DNA of 52,932 bases from Candidatus Margulisiibacteriota bacterium. GTDB lineage: Bacteria; Margulisbacteria; WOR-1; O2-12-FULL-45-9. A program made the translations under genes and the position numbers. The notes beneath the pieces were generated by a model. The model was given only the letters and a program-made list of their open reading frames with translations. It had not been told where the DNA came from and made no database searches. Positions 23,204 through 48,424 of the stretch are shown in pieces (position 1 is the stretch's first letter; each line of letters starts with the position of its first letter). The stretch lies in the NCBI GenBank assembly GCA_036448795.1, contig JAZFXQ010000057.1:1-52932 (forward strand), written 5' to 3'.

Positions 23204-23231
23204 TGAAATTTTCGTATAAAATTGTCGATAA
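23204..23231 (+). promoter_or_regulatory. sigma28-like promoter motif (site C)
   Basis: TGAAATTT tcgtataaaatt GTCGATAA atatatgaagaggag. ATG 23274 lies 42 nt downstream and is preceded by AGGAGG. Confidence 0.6.
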
Positions 23232-23273
23232 ATATATGAAGAGGAGATTTAAGGTAAAAAGGAGGAATTTGAT

Positions 23274-28827: not shown

Positions 28828-29169
28828 ATGGCAGAGGAATTCAATCCAGCTGAAGAAGGCCGTCGTATTGCCCACGAGTATTTAAGTAAGCGCGGTTGGA
28901 CGCGCGAGTGGCGCAGAACCCTGAATCGCCAATTATATCCCGGAGTTCAAAGGGAGGAATTTGAGGCCAAGCAGAGGCAGTGCGATCAGATGGAGGAGGA
29001 AGCCGAAGAGATTTTTTCCCGAAATATTGAGCGCTGGAGACACGATCCTTCTCCGCAGGCCAAGGAAGTTCTGCATGCCATTGTTGAAGTGATGGGAAAA
29101 AGGCTAGATCTTGGATTCTTTGCAAAGAGGATTGTGGATCGCTTGGAGAGAGAACTGGGGCCAATTTAA
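28828..29169 (+). CDS. hypothetical charged helical protein (113 aa)
   Basis: The ORF starts 3 nt after the upstream stop and has a protein-like helical composition. The equally long antisense ORF is Pro/Ser low-complexity. Confidence 0.45.
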   Translation: MAEEFNPAEEGRRIAHEYLSKRGWTREWRRTLNRQLYPGVQREEFEAKQRQCDQMEEEAEEIFSRNIERWRHDPSPQAKEVLHAIVEVMGKRLDLGFFAKRIVDRLERELGPI

Positions 29170-29175
29170 AGTGAA

Positions 29176-29202
29176 GGGGGCGCGCTCTCCGCGAACGCCC
29201 CC
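29176..29202. terminator. bidirectional rho-independent terminator hairpin between convergent genes
   Basis: GGGGGCG cgctctccgcgaa CGCCCCC is followed by ctcttatttg on the + strand and a T-rich run on the - strand. Confidence 0.6.
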
Positions 29203-29213
29203 CTCTTATTTGA

Positions 29214-30119
29214 TTACTTTTCGAGAACTAACCGGACTGGTGAAGGGAATGTATGATTCTTGCCTTTATATTTAAAACTGAGGAAATCAACATGAATATC
29301 TAGATAGTCAGCGTAGGCGGTGGTCGCGCTTTCCGAAATTGGCTCAACTTTTACTGGCCCTTTTGCCGGTAGAGCGATCTTGTTCTCGATCATATATTTG
29401 GCCAGCTCTAGTTTGAACTTGCTCACATTTCCTCTCTTAATAAGACCAAGCTGCCACGCTCTCTTTTTGCTTCCCTTTTCGCATATATTGGAATCGCGCC
29501 CATGATCCCTCCATGGTTTAACGCGAAGCCTCTTTGCTAAATTATACACATCCATATTAACGTATGGTCTTTTCGCTGCTCGTGAAAGCCAGGGGTGTTT
29601 TATTTTATCCGCCCATCCGATCTCCTCCCTGCTTTCCGTTTGCAATTCATTGATCTGTTCCGGGGTAAAGTACTCTGGATTTTTATCTTTGAAGGTCTCA
29701 CGTATTCCGTCGCGTTGAATTATAAGGGCTTCAGCAAAACGAACGGTTTTATCCTTATATTTAAAACCCACGAAAAGGAAAACCGCCCGGTTGCAAAAAA
29801 AGTCCTGTTGCCAATTTTTCGTATCGCTTTCTGAAAATGGCTCGATCTCTATGGTGCCCCTTTGGGAGATTTTGATCTTCTCGGCGAGCAGTGCCTGCGC
29901 TATTTCAAGTTTGATCTTGCTCCGATTTGTCCGCTCGAACGATGATAGTTTCTCCAGAAAGAGACCCTCTCCCCGTCTAAAATTTCGCCAATTTTTTATC
30001 CGGATTCTCTTTGCCAGATTATATACGTCCATATTGATGCCTTTTTTTAGCGCCATTTGAGAAAGGAAGGGGCGCCTTACTTTCTCTGCCAACCCCATTC
30101 TAGCTCCAGCTGTAACCAT
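29214..30119 (-). CDS. hypothetical protein with an internal two-fold duplication (301 aa)
   Basis: SD GGGGGA lies 8 nt before the ATG. The two halves share NMDVYNLAKR(I/L)R(I/V)K.WR, SK(I/F)KLE(I/L)A, (I/V)EP(F/I)SES and FKYK.K...F. Confidence 0.6.
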   Translation of the reverse strand: MVTAGARMGLAEKVRRPFLSQMALKKGINMDVYNLAKRIRIKNWRNFRRGEGLFLEKLSSFERTNRSKIKLEIAQALLAEKIKISQRGTIEIEPFSESDTKNWQQDFFCNRAVFLFVGFKYKDKTVRFAEALIIQRDGIRETFKDKNPEYFTPEQINELQTESREEIGWADKIKHPWLSRAAKRPYVNMDVYNLAKRLRVKPWRDHGRDSNICEKGSKKRAWQLGLIKRGNVSKFKLELAKYMIENKIALPAKGPVKVEPISESATTAYADYLDIHVDFLSFKYKGKNHTFPSPVRLVLEK

Positions 30120-30202
30120 TTTTTGTTCCCCCTTAATTTATATTTTAGTTTTTCAGATATCGACCTTCGTCAGCCTCTTTGGGCATCTGAGTTTCCAAAA
30201 TT

Positions 30203-30233
30203 TTAGGGAACGTACTCTCCGCACGTTCCCTAA
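30203..30233 (-). terminator. perfect 11-bp stem hairpin: terminator of the radical-SAM gene and/or attenuator in the leader of 29214-30119
   Basis: TTAGGGAACGT actctccgc ACGTTCCCTAA. On the - strand it is followed by AATTTTGG. It lies downstream of motif site E. Confidence 0.45.
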
Positions 30234-30275
30234 GTTTTTCCTTATTTGCGGAGAGCAAATGTCTCTCTATATGTA

Positions 30276-30303
30276 TTATCGTCACTTTTTGGAAGAAATT
30301 TCA
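30276..30303 (-). promoter_or_regulatory. sigma28-like promoter motif (site E)
   Basis: Reverse strand reads TGAAATTT cttccaaaaagt GACGATAA tacatatagagagac, 156 nt upstream of ATG 30119. Confidence 0.6.
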
Positions 30304-30317
30304 TATTTTGCAGAAAA

Positions 30318-31205
30318 TTAAATGCGAGGGAAACCTCGATGCAAGCCTTCCTTTTTAGCCATATCGATGGCTTCTCTATATTCTTCATGGGATATTCTTC
30401 GATCAAGCGGAGGGAAGTCCCAGGCCTGGCCGCAGGGGCGATACTGATCCATGATGTTAACATAGGAATCTTTGGATAGCTCGGAAGCTATAAAATGCAT
30501 GACGCTTCCAGTTCCAGCTAATCCTCCCGGAAGAACCAAGTGTCTGATTAGCATTCCACGCTCAGCGATCCCTTCTTTGTTCATGATTAGATCTCCCACC
30601 TGTCGATGCATTTCTTTAAAGGCTGCCCTGGCTACTTCCGGATAATCTTTGGCTTCTTTTGAATAACTGCTAGCCACTTCTTTATCCCAGTATTTAAAAT
30701 CCGGCATGTAAATATCAATTACATCTTCCATAAGCTTTAATTCCTGGATAGAATCGTAGCCTCCGGTATTGTAAACCAGGGGAACCTTTAGTCCCTGGGG
30801 AATGGCGATCTCAAGTGCGGCTAGGATCTGTGGAACCTGATGGGAAGGGGTAACAAAGTTGATATTGTGGCAGCCAAGTTTCTGCAGATAGAGCATCTGA
30901 TCGGCAAATTCTTCTATGGAGACTACTTTACCCATCATGCTGTGGCTTATTTCGTAATTCTGACAGTACAAGCAATGCAGATTACAACCGGTTAAAAAGA
31001 TTGTTCCTGATCCATGCCGGCCCACCAGAGGAGCTTCTTCGCCAAAGTGCGGGCTGGCAGAAGAGAGCATAGGATCTTTTCCAACCTTGCAATCCCCAAG
31101 CTCTCCTTTGAGTCGATTGACTTTGCATTCACGGGGGCAAAGGGTACAGTTTTCAAGAATTTTATAAGCTTTTTCGATTTTTTCTCGAAGCTCTCTGTTA
31201 CCCAC
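30318..31205 (-). CDS. radical SAM protein, PflX-like (putative glycyl-radical-enzyme-activase-like)
   Basis: CTLCPRECKVNR, followed by the GCNLHCLYCQN CxxxCxxC cluster motif. 295 aa, GTG start. Confidence 0.75.
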   Translation of the reverse strand: MGNRELREKIEKAYKILENCTLCPRECKVNRLKGELGDCKVGKDPMLSSASPHFGEEAPLVGRHGSGTIFLTGCNLHCLYCQNYEISHSMMGKVVSIEEFADQMLYLQKLGCHNINFVTPSHQVPQILAALEIAIPQGLKVPLVYNTGGYDSIQELKLMEDVIDIYMPDFKYWDKEVASSYSKEAKDYPEVARAAFKEMHRQVGDLIMNKEGIAERGMLIRHLVLPGGLAGTGSVMHFIASELSKDSYVNIMDQYRPCGQAWDFPPLDRRISHEEYREAIDMAKKEGLHRGFPRI

Positions 31206-32317: not shown

Positions 32318-32743
32318 ATGATCCTCGGACAGCAAACGATTCTTAAATTAATTCTTATTGTTTTATTAGTCTTGGCATTATCATCTTGTGCTTCTGTCAA
32401 AGAGAAAGCTGAGGTAAGCCTTGAAGAGGAAGAGTCAGAGATTATTGCGGAAAAGGCAGCCTCAGCTGAAGGGGATGTCCGTAAGCCAATCTATGTTTAC
32501 GAAAACCAACCGAAAAAAGTTTCTTTGAAAGAAATAACATTAACAATGCATAGCGAGCCCCTCCTCCTGCCCAACGGCTATGTTCGGTTAGTTGGGGTGG
32601 TCAGTGGGGGAAGACCGATGGCTCTGATTGAGGTCGGGGGGAGAGGGCTTTGTGTTGATGTGGGAGATGAGATTGGTAAATACAGGGTTGCCTGGATTTC
32701 AAGAGAAAAAATCAAGCTGGTAAGAAAAGGGGAGGATCAATAA
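32318..32743 (+). CDS. lipoprotein, PilP/GspC-like secretin-associated protein
   Basis: Lipobox LALSSC. The C-terminal VRLVGVVSGGRPMALIEVGG..VDVGDEIGKYRVAWISREKIKL resembles the PilP/GspC beta domain. It ends at the secretin start (ATAATG). Confidence 0.5.
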   Translation: MILGQQTILKLILIVLLVLALSSCASVKEKAEVSLEEEESEIIAEKAASAEGDVRKPIYVYENQPKKVSLKEITLTMHSEPLLLPNGYVRLVGVVSGGRPMALIEVGGRGLCVDVGDEIGKYRVAWISREKIKLVRKGEDQ

Positions 32744-33900
32744 TGTTTAAAAAAATTGTGCTTCTATGCTGTTGTGCCACTATCTTTCTGAGTCTCGCGG
32801 AGGCCAGTGAGCTGATCGCCAGAGTGGATTTTGCGGATGCGGCAGTATTAGATGTGGTCCAAACACTGGCACGGCAGGCCGGTTTAGAGTTGATAATCAG
32901 CGGAGACAGTGCTTTGGCGCAGAACAAGCGGACAACCGTGCATTTGAAGGATATTACAGCCGAGGAGGCCATTGATTATGTTGTGAAAACAAATGGCCTG
33001 GCTTTTGAGCGGAAAGGAAAAGTTATCCTGGTTTCTGTGTTGCCTCAGGGGCCTGCGGCGTATAAGGGAGAGATCGAAACCCTGAGCCTCAAATATCTTT
33101 CTGCTGAAAGAATGTCGGCTCTGCTGGCTAAAGTACTTCCCGCATTAAAGGCCACTAGCGGGGGAAGCGCAAATTCCTTAATCCTTCAGGGGAGCTCCGC
33201 TCTTATTGAAGAGGCCCGGAAACTCATTTCTTCAGTTGACAGACCGGTTCCTCAAATATTGATCGAGAGCAAGGTATTGGAGATTTCTGAATCAGATTCT
33301 ATGCGTTTGGGGTTCTCTTATGGCCGGGAGAAAGGAGCTTTCAAATTTATAACTGACAAGAAAAGCGGGCAAACCGTCCCGGCGGAGGATTTGCAGACAA
33401 CCTTGAATGCTCTTATAGGGAATGGCAAGGCAAACGTTGTAGCCAGCCCCAGGATCGCGACTTTGGATAACCATGAAGCGGTGATCAATATCGGCAGCCG
33501 TATCCCTTACGCGGTTCCGGTAAGCAACGGTTCCAGTAGCACTCAGTGGACGGTTGAGTACATCGAGGCAGGGGTGAAGCTAAAGATCACTCCGCGCCTT
33601 GGTCAAGAAGGCTACATTACTACTTCGATTCAACCTGAGGTTTCTTCAGTTTCAGAATGGCGGACCACCGCTGCGGGCGAATTCCCGGTAATCACTACCC
33701 GGAACGCCCAAGCCACTCTTAGGGTTAGAGATGGTGAGACCATTGTGGTGGGAGGATTGCTTTCTGAGTCTGATCGCGAAAATATTTCCAGATTGCCAAT
33801 CCTGGGATATTTACCGGTAATAGGTTTGCTTTTCCAAAATAAGACCGTAGAGAAGGCGAAGACCGAGATAGTTTTTCTAATTACACCCCATGTTATCTAA
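32743..33900 (+). CDS. secretin (type II secretion/type IV pilus family), short form
   Basis: N-terminal STN/N0-like domain, then NVVASPRIATLDNHEAVINIG, ATLRVRDGETIVVGGL and LPILGYLPVIGLLF..TEIVFLITPHV. Confidence 0.85.
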   Translation: MFKKIVLLCCCATIFLSLAEASELIARVDFADAAVLDVVQTLARQAGLELIISGDSALAQNKRTTVHLKDITAEEAIDYVVKTNGLAFERKGKVILVSVLPQGPAAYKGEIETLSLKYLSAERMSALLAKVLPALKATSGGSANSLILQGSSALIEEARKLISSVDRPVPQILIESKVLEISESDSMRLGFSYGREKGAFKFITDKKSGQTVPAEDLQTTLNALIGNGKANVVASPRIATLDNHEAVINIGSRIPYAVPVSNGSSSTQWTVEYIEAGVKLKITPRLGQEGYITTSIQPEVSSVSEWRTTAAGEFPVITTRNAQATLRVRDGETIVVGGLLSESDRENISRLPILGYLPVIGLLFQNKTVEKAKTEIVFLITPHVI

Positions 33901-36252: not shown

Positions 36253-37296
36253 TTATCCCTCCTTGAATAGATTTGCTTGCTTTGTCTTGTCTGATTTTTT
36301 TATGGCTATTCCAAGGTGCTTATGAGCAGCCGGCGTAGCCACTCTTCCCCGCGGTGTTCTTTCGATGAATCCAAGCTGCAGGAGGAAAGGCTCATAAACA
36401 TCTTCAATGGTCAGAGAATCTTCATGGATGGAAGCAGCTAGAGAGTCAACTCCTACCGGTCCGCCCGAAAATTTTTCAATAATGGCTTTTAAAAGCTTTC
36501 GATCAACCTTGTCCAAGCCTAGTTCGTCAATCTCTAAGCCTGCCAGGGCTTTCTCAGCAGTTTCTCGATTAATGGTGCCATCTTCCTTGACTTGCGCAAA
36601 ATCCCGCACTCGGCGCAGCAGCCGGTTCGCAATGCGCGGAGTTCCTCGAGAGCGCTTGGCGATTTCCTGCGAACCTTCCTTTTCGATCTCAATCTTTAAT
36701 ACCTGAGCGGCATGCAGGATGATTTGGTCTATTTCCTCCGGCGAGTAAAATTCAAGTCGACTGATCATTCCAAAGCGGTCCCGAAGCGGGGAGGAGAGCT
36801 GACCGATGCGAGTGGTGGCACCAATTAAAGTAAATTTGGGAAGATCCAGACGGATAGATCTGGCGCTGGGGCCTTTTCCAATCATAATGTCCAGTCCAAA
36901 ATCTTCCATGGCCGGATAAAGAACCTCCTCCACTACCCGATTCAGACGATGAATTTCGTCGATGAAGAGAACATCATTCATTTTTAGATTGGTTAAAATG
37001 GCGGCTAGATCGCCCGGGCGTTCAATCGCCGGACCTGAGGTTATTTTAAAATTGACCACCATTTCGTTGGCGATAATACTGGCGAGGGTTGTTTTTCCCA
37101 AACCAGGCGGGCCATAAAAAAGGAGGTGTTCCAGATGTTCTTTGCGCCCCTTGACCGCATCGATGTGAATAAGCAAGTTTTCCTTGATCTTTTCCTGGCC
37201 GATGAAATTTTTGAAGGTCTTGGGACGAAGCCCCTCAAAAGCCAGGTCTTCTTCCTTGCGCTCAAAGGTAATGATCCTATCCTTTTTTTCAGCCAC
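36253..37296 (-). CDS. ruvB: Holliday junction branch migration helicase RuvB
   Basis: [30 protein letters not shown] and RTPRGR motifs. Confidence 0.93.
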
Positions 37297-44386: not shown

Positions 44387-45898
44387 CTATTTTGTAATAC
44401 TGTGGAGAATATATGCCGCTTCGGCCCGGGAGAAATCCTTATTAGGCTCAAGGCTGTCTCCGGGAATATAATCTAACAATCCGGCTTTCTTCGCGGCAAT
44501 AATATTTGGGGCAGCCCAGTGGCTGGCAGGAAGATCAATGAAGGGAGATTCTTCTCTGATCGGCTTTAGGTTTGCAAATCGGGATAGGATAAGCACCCCT
44601 TCAACCCGGTTCAAGGTTTTTGAGGGTTGAAAAGTCCCATCCGGATATCCGCCGACTAATTTGATGTCTACGGCGGCCTTAATATAAGGTGCGGCCCAGT
44701 GTTTGACCGGAAGATCATTAAAAATTTGCTCTTTAGGTTTTGCAACCTTTATCTTTTTAGCTTTAATAAGTAGGGTGCTAAGCTCAGCTCGGGTTAAAGT
44801 CTTTTCTGGTTTGAAAGTCCCGTCTGGATATCCGCCGATGATTCCTTTTTCAGCTAGGGTTTCTATGGCTTCTTTAGCCCAATACCCTTGGGGCACATCC
44901 GAAAATCCAGGAGGAGCTTTAACTTTCTTGGGTGGAGCTTTTATTTTCTTTTCTGGCAGAAGATAGGAAAACGTGAAGTAATGGGTAGAATTTGCTGAAA
45001 GAAGGGTGTCTATGTAGTAGGCATAATCAAATGAAAATCCATTGGAGTTCAGACCGATTCCCAATCCCAGATTGGTAGTTGCTTCATTTTGGTTTATGGC
45101 AATTTGATCTAGCCCCCCTCGAATAGCGAGTAGCTCTGAATATCTCCATTCGACTCCGGCATGGAGTAGAAGGGGGGAGTTGCGGGCATAATCCAGGTCT
45201 CCCGTGATCAGTAAGTCATTTCGAGGAGTGTAAGCGCAACCGATCTTGGTATTGAAAGGGATTCCTTCTTTTTCTCCCGTACCCCAGGTAATTGAAGCAA
45301 TGCTTGCGGGCAGGGTGTTCTGCTGGGATACCCCGAGACTGAAATCTTTTCTCGGTTTCCAGAGAAGACCGAGGTCCATGTCAAAGCCGGAGGCAGTGCT
45401 TCCGGAAGAGCCGCTAAAGCCTTTGCTGAAAAGCTTCAGGGTGGCGCCGGCTGCCAGATTTTCCATGATCTCTTTTCCATAAACCAGGGAAATAACGCTG
45501 TTTGAATAGTCAAATGAAGTCCCGCTTGCCACGATTCGGCTGTCTGCATCCCGGGTAGCAATTTGAATCCCTGAGGTTAATCCACCAAGATAGGATAGTC
45601 CAAATGTTCCCCAGGGAGCCTGATATCCCCCGCCCAGCAGGGTGTAAGTAATCTCTCCCTCAAGCAGGGTCGTGTACATACTGGTTGCGCCCCAGCCCTT
45701 GAAATCAGCGGCATTAGCCGGGTTTATGAACATGGAGTTGATATTACCCGCAAGGCTGGCTGCGGTGCGGCCCATGGCCAGGGACCTTGCACCTACCCCC
45801 AGTTTCATGGGATCCAGCGAAGCCGCATGACAAATCCCAAAACCAAATGACAGACTTAAAATAATCGACAAAATCCAAATTGTAAGTTTAGTTATCAT
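44387..45898 (-). CDS. outer-membrane beta-barrel-like protein with three C-terminal SLH domains (paralog of 14198-15832)
   Basis: Signal peptide ..GICHA|A. GARSLAMGRTAASLAGNINSMFINPANAA is followed by alternating strands. Three SLH repeats follow (FSDVPQGYWAKEAIE.., FNDLPVKHWAAPYIKAA.., FIDLPASHWAAPNII..). Confidence 0.75.
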   Translation of the reverse strand: MITKLTIWILSIILSLSFGFGICHAASLDPMKLGVGARSLAMGRTAASLAGNINSMFINPANAADFKGWGATSMYTTLLEGEITYTLLGGGYQAPWGTFGLSYLGGLTSGIQIATRDADSRIVASGTSFDYSNSVISLVYGKEIMENLAAGATLKLFSKGFSGSSGSTASGFDMDLGLLWKPRKDFSLGVSQQNTLPASIASITWGTGEKEGIPFNTKIGCAYTPRNDLLITGDLDYARNSPLLLHAGVEWRYSELLAIRGGLDQIAINQNEATTNLGLGIGLNSNGFSFDYAYYIDTLLSANSTHYFTFSYLLPEKKIKAPPKKVKAPPGFSDVPQGYWAKEAIETLAEKGIIGGYPDGTFKPEKTLTRAELSTLLIKAKKIKVAKPKEQIFNDLPVKHWAAPYIKAAVDIKLVGGYPDGTFQPSKTLNRVEGVLILSRFANLKPIREESPFIDLPASHWAAPNIIAAKKAGLLDYIPGDSLEPNKDFSRAEAAYILHSITK

Positions 45899-48358: not shown

Positions 48359-48386
48359 TGAAATTTCACATTTTTTCTGCGGATAA
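48359..48386 (+). promoter_or_regulatory. sigma28-like promoter motif (site D)
   Basis: TGAAATTT cacattttttct GCGGATAA tatattagagagca. ATG 48425 lies 38 nt downstream. Confidence 0.6.
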
Positions 48387-48424
48387 TATATTAGAGAGCA
48401 CGGAAAGTTTTTGAGGAAAAAATC

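Follow-up and report, generated by a model that had tools for sequence, protein, structure and literature searches.

A candidate terminator/antiterminator leader precedes the gene for a rare, internally duplicated basic protein in a Margulisiibacteriota bacterium

Overview of the locus

The stretch of DNA analyzed in this study, called the window throughout, spans 52,932 nucleotides (nt) of contig JAZFXQ010000057.1 from a Candidatus Margulisiibacteriota bacterium. It also matches contig JAZHBW012005129.1 of the NCBI metagenome assembly GCA_044240365.1. The locus of interest (29176 to 30303) carries, in the order in which its minus strand would be transcribed, a promoter motif, a leader of about 150 nt with a pyrimidine box and a terminator-like hairpin, a gene for an internally duplicated basic protein and a second GC-rich hairpin. 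A preceding sequence-only reading had described this region as a hairpin-flanked cassette with an attenuator or riboswitch-type leader behind a sigma-28-like promoter. Our analysis supports the leader as a conserved unit tied to the gene and makes the locus a new candidate member of the terminator/antiterminator leader class, associated with a very rare new protein family.

An internally duplicated gene with two known relatives

The gene (29214..30119, minus strand; ATG at 30119, stop codon at 29216-29214) was delimited by reading of the open reading frame (ORF) and encodes a protein of 301 amino acids (aa) with an isoelectric point (pI) of 10. Alignment of one half against the other revealed two copies of a domain of ~140 aa (aa 8-132, nt 30098-29724, and aa 167-295, nt 29621-29235) with 37% identity and an E-value of 3e-27, in agreement with the duplication noticed earlier. 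Comparison of the codons showed that synonymous codons differ at 22 of the 49 residues identical between the halves, and that identity by codon position is 0.56/0.66/0.44 (2>1>3). Since the match between the halves is accompanied by many synonymous differences, the ORF is a genuine coding sequence under selection, in which two diverged copies of a basic domain are fused, and the duplication is old. Its GC content is similar to that of the adjoining DNA, and paralogues of the domain were absent from the remainder of the window.

An exhaustive HMMER search of 1.84 billion (1.84e9) representative proteins with a profile of the two halves recovered two real relatives, P0002 (144 aa) and P0003 (156 aa), each consisting of one domain, while four other matches were rejected as chance similarities to repetitive eukaryote-like proteins. 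A word-indexed search of 5.8e9 clusters returned the window protein itself only, and a second indexed search with a four-domain profile added no relatives. With three known members, the family is very small as judged by these searches. The C-terminal half comes closest to P0002 (44%), identities between the N-terminal half and the other domains are 33-38%, and the window protein and P0003 share ~33% identity. The pI is about 10 in the window protein as well as in both relatives, and this basic charge is the sole hint of nucleic-acid binding.

Neither the 301-aa protein nor its relatives matched Pfam, NCBIfam, PHROGs or PADLOC, and the family profile had no hit among the PDB sequences. The AlphaFold2 (AF2) model of the domain (predicted local distance difference test, pLDDT, 70; predicted template modeling score, pTM, 0.66) consists of several helices followed by a three-stranded sheet. 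Foldseek searches of PDB and BFVD with this model gave no match with E < 0.01 (best E-value 0.16 in PDB and 0.019 in BFVD, template modeling (TM) score < 0.35). The full-length AF2 model was too poor for use (pLDDT 55, pTM 0.39).

Elements of the leader

All leader elements are described as read on the minus strand. Transcription is predicted to start near 30268, and the leader begins after the promoter with AGAGAGACAUUU (30268-30257). This purine-rich start would form part of P1, a small 5' hairpin (GAGAG-ACAUUUG-CUCUC, 30251..30267) that is predicted in both leaders compared below and that we propose to be an anti-antiterminator. The 3' side of P1 overlaps the pyrimidine box GCUCUCCGC (30248..30256), the proposed switch strand. 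An A-rich linker separates the box from the terminator-like hairpin UUAGGGAACGU-GCGGAGAGU-ACGUUCCCUAA (30203..30233), which lies 83 nt before the ATG. Its stem comprises 11 bp between the arms UUAGGGAACGU and ACGUUCCCUAA and is extendable to 13 pairs, with a GGAGA apex (GCGGAGAGU, 30222-30214). The hairpin is followed by the U-run AAAAUUUUGG (30197..30200), a further small hairpin, P3 (GCC-CAAAGA-GGC, 30173..30184), and the Shine-Dalgarno (SD) sequence GGGGG (AAGGGGGAAC, 30128..30132) 8 nt before the ATG.

Folding z-scores were -4.8 to -5.0 for this leader and -3.1 for its counterpart in the second locus. For the 186-nt window leader, the structure of minimum free energy contains a helix between the box and the hairpin loop, and the centroid structure contains the terminator. 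Two further candidate features were rejected. A 37-codon ORF with a TTG start behind GAGAGA (30145-30258, minus strand) spans both the box and the terminator hairpin, and its stop codon lies 25 nt ahead of the ATG. As the second locus offers neither a comparable start nor a comparable frame, this ORF was dismissed as the sensor and is probably not a leader peptide. A possible pseudoknot around the box (AUUUG/CAAAU) was likewise discarded since it is missing there.

The riboswitch part of the earlier interpretation was not supported, as no riboswitch or known leader family matched in Rfam. A scan of the whole window with Rfam 15 at gathering thresholds gave no hits. At the locus, the best matches in E-value mode (E<=10) were uup (19.4 bits versus a threshold of 36.8) and SSRC34 (21.5 versus 64), which is chance level, and the second locus also produced chance-level matches only.

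Conservation of the leader in a second locus

P0003 is encoded on a 1.1-kb ENA scaffold (L082), and its leader was compared with that of the window (n=2). The intergenic region of L082 consists of CTGAAATTT-N12-AACGATAT, ACAGAGGGACAUA, GCUCUCCG, AAAUAG..., the hairpin AAGGGGAGCAU-UUUU-AUGCUCCCCUA (458-483), AUUUUUUGGA, GGCC-CAAGA-GGCC, AGAAGGAGA and the ATG. All elements of the window leader therefore recur in unchanged order, including the box core GCUCUCCG, which is identical at 8/8 positions, and the UUUUGGA after the hairpin. P3 has its counterpart in GGCC-CAAGA-GGCC (about 494-506); the loop CAA(A)GA is kept, and in both leaders the hairpin lies between terminator and SD.

Absence of conservation and covariation in relatives had been set beforehand as a possible refutation, and both were found. 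Local alignment of the two leaders scored 46, compared with 17.3 +/- 2.5 (maximum 29) for shuffled sequences, while the nucleotides of the coding sequences shared a 16-nt chance match only. Because the leaders align and the coding nucleotides no longer do, the leader must be more strongly constrained than synonymous sites. According to RNAalifold and a manual count, the terminator stem contains 10 pairs of which six are identical and four compensatory, with no one-sided change and no broken pair. The RNAalifold consensus of P1 has five pairs, one of them changed from A-U to G-U.

The L082 hairpin passed our terminator scan (10 pairs, 6 GC, AATTTTTTGG with six U). Only 22 nt separate its U-run from the ATG, so the L082 gene must be transcribed through the hairpin. 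The upstream genes of the two loci are unlike each other (a radical-SAM gene in the window, ruvA in L082) with the order of the elements unchanged, which assigns the hairpin to the unit that follows it rather than to the gene that precedes it. These comparisons support the leader as a conserved unit tied to the gene.

Alternative pairing of the box with the terminator

Part of the terminator hairpin is complementary to the box in both leaders. In the window, the box strand UGCUCUCCGCA pairs with UGCGGAGAGU(A), which comprises the loop and the top pairs of the stem, with -18.0 kcal/mol; 12 of 5000 shuffled targets were as good. In L082, the box GCUCUCC pairs with GGGGAGC in the 5' arm (-13.6 kcal/mol; 7/5000 target shuffles as good). 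When the box was shuffled instead of the target, 9/5000 (window) and 7/5000 (L082) sequences reached the same strength, so that both pairings are stronger than about 99.8% of shuffles.

Predicted folding depended on whether the 3' arm of the hairpin was included. In transcripts lacking it, the box was paired downstream with a probability of 1.0 in the window and 0.99 in L082. In full-length transcripts, the box was paired upstream (0.73 in the window, 0.81 in L082) with the terminator formed, and the ensemble favored P1 plus terminator. Wherever P1 or the antiterminator contains a wobble pair, it reads G-U on the sense strand, which favors pairing at the RNA level over a symmetry of the DNA.

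Which part of the hairpin is targeted differs between the loci. In L082, 7 nt of the 5' arm are engaged by the box, and this pairing is exclusive with the terminator. The loop of the L082 hairpin is UUUU, so that the octamer in the window loop is not conserved. Accordingly, the loop pseudoknot that the sequence-only reading had proposed may form in the window but is ruled out as the conserved mechanism; the conserved feature, as far as the two sequences allow a statement, is the complementarity of the box to part of the terminator hairpin. What remains of the proposed attenuator-type leader is the order of its elements, the stem and this complementarity, all of which are kept in L082.

A proposed attenuator

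These features suggest that the locus is one transcription unit made up of a promoter, a leader of ~150 nt and a gene fusing two rare basic domains of ~140 aa. The leader would act as a terminator/antiterminator attenuator arranged around one invariant strand, the box GCUCUCCG. Pairing of the box with the 5' purine run AGAGRG would give P1, the anti-antiterminator, and pairing with GGRGAG within the terminator hairpin (loop and top pairs in the window, 5' arm in L082) would give the antiterminator. While P1 or a bound factor keeps the box engaged, the GC-rich hairpin and its U-run would form and transcription would stop before the gene. If the box instead captures GGRGAG while the RNA leaves the polymerase, read-through would result. 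This three-helix logic of anti-antiterminator P1, antiterminator and terminator could be governed by a protein recognizing the invariant GACAU..GCUCUCCG..AAAUA, possibly the basic gene product itself in a feedback loop, although the effector is a guess. We infer both termination and its conditionality, and we hold this mechanism tentatively, at somewhat less than an even chance.

Several observations weigh against it. The region in front of the terminator measures only ~45 nt and matches no Rfam family. The window hairpin is followed by AAAAUUUU, in which a run of 4 A leads into 4 U only, and did not pass the terminator scan. On the plus strand, the same hairpin precedes GTTTTTCC (GTTTTT), a better T-run than that of the sense strand, and could stop antisense transcription leaving the duplicated gene. 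The window box pairs with the loop and 1-2 nt of the stem and is only partly exclusive with the terminator, as the lower 10 bp of the stem are not clearly excluded by the antiterminator. The mechanism would thus have to differ between the window and L082. Covariation statistics drawn from two leaders are thin, and neither the domain model nor the Foldseek searches of PDB and BFVD gave a hint of RNA binding.

Closer comparison with established systems reveals both likeness and difference. The PyrR-pyr, TRAP-trp and BglG/LicT-RAT systems are protein-controlled terminator/antiterminator leaders. As in these, one strand of the window and L082 leaders would join either an upstream helix or an antiterminator overlapping a terminator before the SD, and the sequence of the switch region is kept, in the manner expected of a protein-binding site. 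Differences to PyrR- or RAT-type leaders are the lack of an Rfam match, the targeting of the terminator loop by the window antiterminator and the number of examples, which is two. With riboswitches acting through a terminator platform, the leaders share a conserved structure, a terminator ahead of the gene and alternative pairing with this terminator. They differ from riboswitches by the ~45 nt ahead of the terminator, which hold no recognizable aptamer, by the lack of an Rfam hit beyond chance level and by the orphan gene, which suggests no metabolite.

The promoter motif and its other occurrences

The promoter motif TGAAATTT-N12-GACGATAA (30276..30303, minus strand) recurs with the same spacing at five other sites of the window and in L082 (389-416). 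The form common to the window leader and L082 is TGAAATTT-N12-RACGATAW. The window sites are located at 23204-23232(+), 43045-43018(-), 44370-44343(-), 48360-48387(+), 50411-50384(-) and 30303-30276(-), and share the long motif nTGAAATTT-N4-5-AAAAT-N2-3-G.CGATAWATATAT with fixed spacing, often followed by ATATAT. In its short form, nTGAAATTT-N12-G.CGATAW, the motif has six copies in the window and one in L082.

The consensus of sigma-28 (FliA) promoters is TAAAGTTT-n11-GCCGATAA (PMC2859248). In this register the window promoter reads GAAATTTC-n11-GACGATAA and matches the consensus at 12/16 positions with canonical spacing. A sigma-70 scan identified ATGAAA-18-GATAAT in the same region with 9/12 matches and an 18-nt spacer. 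The CG of CGATA is missing at two of the six sites (GGATAA, AGATAA). All six sites precede genes for basic proteins (pI 9.1-10.6). Four of these are orphans lacking a Pfam match (192, 265, 301 and 390 aa), one is an alpha/beta hydrolase and one is encoded by a 65-aa ORF. A Pfam scan of the five genes other than the 65-aa ORF found no flagellar or chemotaxis gene.

The motif itself and its likeness to sigma-28 promoters are therefore as described before. Since the site fits sigma-70 about equally well and none of the downstream genes is flagellar, the sigma-28 label is not established. Besides the sigma-70 fit and the two sites without CG, the absence of flagellar and chemotaxis genes sets these sites apart from typical FliA promoters; no search was made for fliA. 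The six sites may make up a regulon controlled by an alternative sigma factor resembling sigma-28, or they may reflect the consensus of strong promoters in the lineage. A comparable case is chlamydial hctB, reportedly a sigma-28-driven late gene for a basic repeat protein. The window motif likewise precedes genes for basic proteins; the product of the duplicated gene bears no similarity to Hc2. At the other five sites the leaders are short and lack a hairpin, and GAGAGG-like SD sequences come after the -10 element, which bears out the earlier remark that a structured leader is found at this site only.

Copies of the octamer and the 3' hairpin

Copies of the octamer CTCTCCGC were confirmed at 29185-29192(+), 30215-30222(+) and 30248-30255(-), as proposed earlier; the first two occupy hairpin apices that are alike on stems that differ, and the third lies within the box. 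In the whole window the octamer is over-represented, with 7 copies compared to 1.58 expected (0/100 shuffles reached 7), but only two copies are found in hairpin apexes, and the four copies beyond these three lie in coding DNA without a hairpin. The window contains 157 cases in which some octamer occurs three times within 1.1 kb. As such triplets are common, clustering alone is uninformative, and we rejected it as a statistical argument. What is unusual is the placement, with two copies in hairpin apexes and, 25 nt upstream of one of them, a copy of the complementary sequence. By rough estimate, the chance of this placement is ~2e-4 if only these two loops are considered and ~0.05 if any pair of strong hairpins in the window would count.

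The second hairpin, GGGGGGCG-UU-CGC-GGAGA-GCG-CGCCCCC (29176..29203), lies between convergent genes, 7 nt past the stop codon of an ORF on the plus strand (28828-29169) and 11 nt past that of the duplicated gene. It has an outer stem GGGGGCG..CGCCCCC, an inner CGC/GCG stem and a GGAGA apex, with GCGGAGAG at 29192-29185 on the minus strand. Because T-rich tails follow on both strands, the 3' hairpin reads as a bidirectional terminator common to the duplicated gene and the convergent ORF. The convergent ORF encodes an acidic protein of 113 aa (pI 6.0) without a match in Pfam, NCBIfam, PHROGs or PADLOC. The C-G closed GGAGA apex is the same as that of the leader hairpin, and the match may be due to chance (~0.05), reflect a lineage-specific second partner for the box or mark a common protein site. 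The octamer copy in this 3' loop has no role in the attenuator proposed above. In the 53-kb window we found no GCGGAGAG hairpins beyond these two and no other strong hairpins with a GGAGA loop.

Gene neighborhoods

P0003 is encoded immediately 3' of ruvA, and P0002 (JGI 3300042731 contig) likewise follows ruvA in the order ruvC-ruvA-gene, with a gap of 131 nt behind ruvA. Unlike its relatives, the window gene follows a radical-SAM gene, the stop codon of which is located at 30320-30318 (minus strand). A small hairpin with a T-rich tail overlaps this stop codon (CGAGG-UUUC-CCUCG, 30325-30338, minus strand) and may be the radical-SAM gene's own weak terminator ahead of the next promoter. Orthologues of the radical-SAM protein with 57-66% identity are spread over many phyla, and none of their loci in our genome-contig scan had the orphan gene downstream. 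The window contains ruvB ~6 kb away (36253-37296, minus strand) without an adjacent ruvA.

On L082, a second ORF begins 20 nt past the P0003 gene behind a GGAGG SD sequence and is cut at the contig end (1011-1100, plus strand). With 30 aa readable, it is too short to judge paralogy with P0003. If it were a paralogue, the window gene could have arisen by fusion of two tandem genes, which is unproven. A scan of metagenome contigs with P0002 as the query yielded a single locus (L083), which was judged spurious. Searches of viral contigs with the family profile or with the promoter-plus-box pattern gave no match, and two matches to the box pattern alone, both in coding DNA, were attributed to chance. 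A literature search on the assembly and sample accessions returned nothing relevant. A 503-aa protein with three S-layer homology (SLH) domains (44387-45898, minus strand) and a secretin gene (32743-33900) are the only hints in the window of the cell-envelope type of the host.

Alternative explanations

The elements of the leader could be independent of each other and ordinary. The hairpin would then be a constitutive bidirectional terminator, an insulator or an mRNA stabilizer, the box either part of the region transcribed first or an operator with dyad symmetry in the DNA (GAGAG-N7-CTCTC) at which a repressor binds, and the octamers a coincidence. We consider this somewhat unlikely, although it retains a sizeable minority of the probability. 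The GTTTTT on the plus strand next to a weak sense U-run fits such an arrangement, as do the AGAGAG directly after the -10 element at the promoter site at 48360, the abundance of octamer triplets (157 cases) and the absence of the loop octamer from L082. On the other hand, the L082 hairpin with its six U sits between the conserved promoter and a gene starting 22 nt further on, within that gene's own leader and in the same orientation, and in the window the stop codon of the radical-SAM gene is covered by a small hairpin with a T-rich tail that belongs to this gene. Complementarity between box and terminator is kept in both loci despite the different targets, and the wobble pairs work on the sense RNA only.

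Promoter, box and terminator could also constitute a small RNA (sRNA) of ~70 nt, either separate or derived from the 5' untranslated region, with the C/U-rich box as a seed acting in trans. Its targets would be purine-rich sequences (GGAGAG, SD-like), including the GCGGAGAG loop of the 3' terminator, and the gene would be expressed by leaky read-through. The layout of promoter, 5' hairpin, A-rich single-stranded linker and terminator with U tail is in keeping with an sRNA, the box is conserved in its sequence and not in pairing potential alone, which is typical of seeds, and the window transcript presents two GCGGAGAG sites complementary to the box in exposed loops. Even so, the unit is attached to one protein family in both loci, which points to a role in cis, the 53-kb window offers no further GCGGAGAG hairpin as a target, and L082 has no room for a separate promoter of the gene. 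We therefore regard the sRNA as unlikely.

The GGAGA hairpins might alternatively be binding sites for an RNA-binding protein at both ends of the mRNA (C-G closed pentaloops resembling GNRNA or the GGA of CsrA sites), perhaps for the two-domain product itself, which would control antitermination, translation or stability. Both apexes read GC-GGAGA-G, no other strong hairpin of the window has a GGAGA loop, and the product and both relatives are strongly basic, with two domains facing two sites in the window. The boxB hairpin of phage lambda has a GNRNA pentaloop and is bound by an arginine-rich peptide of N. The GGAGA pentaloop of the window fits GNRNA, and together with the very basic product and the termination setting this likeness can serve as a lead only. 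The L082 loop is UUUU and forms no GGAGA apex, the single-domain relatives argue against a need for two sites, and there is no structural or sequence similarity to an RNA-binding fold; in addition, boxA, similarity to N and a phage context are lacking. This explanation is improbable in our view.

A mobile cassette bounded by recombination hairpins, such as IS200/IS605 ends or integron attC sites, would account for two bracketing hairpins with a common apical octamer on the same strand and for the different gene neighborhoods, and is very improbable, given that no transposase or integrase is encoded within +/-10 kb, neither hairpin has a second copy in the window, the GC content is like that of the adjoining DNA, the L082 gene has a 5' hairpin and no 3' hairpin (an ORF follows after 20 nt), and no phage or viral relatives were found with PHROGs or the profile search of viral contigs. 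The idea in the original description that the matching octamers of the bracketing hairpins mark a cassette is not supported by any independent observation, and the 3' hairpin serves the convergent ORF as well.

Implications

A more far-reaching version of the attenuator would join leader, product, GGAGA apexes and promoter regulon into a new attenuator class with a new basic nucleic-acid-binding family. The product, as a dimer of single-domain proteins or as the fused pseudo-dimer of the window, would bind the invariant GACAU-GCUCUCCG-AAAUA of its own nascent leader and thereby determine whether the antiterminator or the terminator forms. Additional targets in the window lineage would be the two GGAGA-loop hairpins, one at each end of the mRNA, and the gene would belong with other genes for basic orphan proteins to a regulon under the unusually long sigma-28-like motif. 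This combination is speculative, and we think it quite unlikely to hold in all its parts.

With two leaders and no cultured host, the value of the attenuator proposed here is limited to that of a well-defined hypothesis, and it is not a result that changes current understanding. If true, the leader would be an undescribed cis-regulatory element missing from Rfam, and the protein family that it accompanies would likewise be undescribed, with three known members in searches of billions of sequences. It would also provide a compact case of an invariant switch strand that keeps its complementarity to the terminator while the target shifts from the stem arm to the loop.

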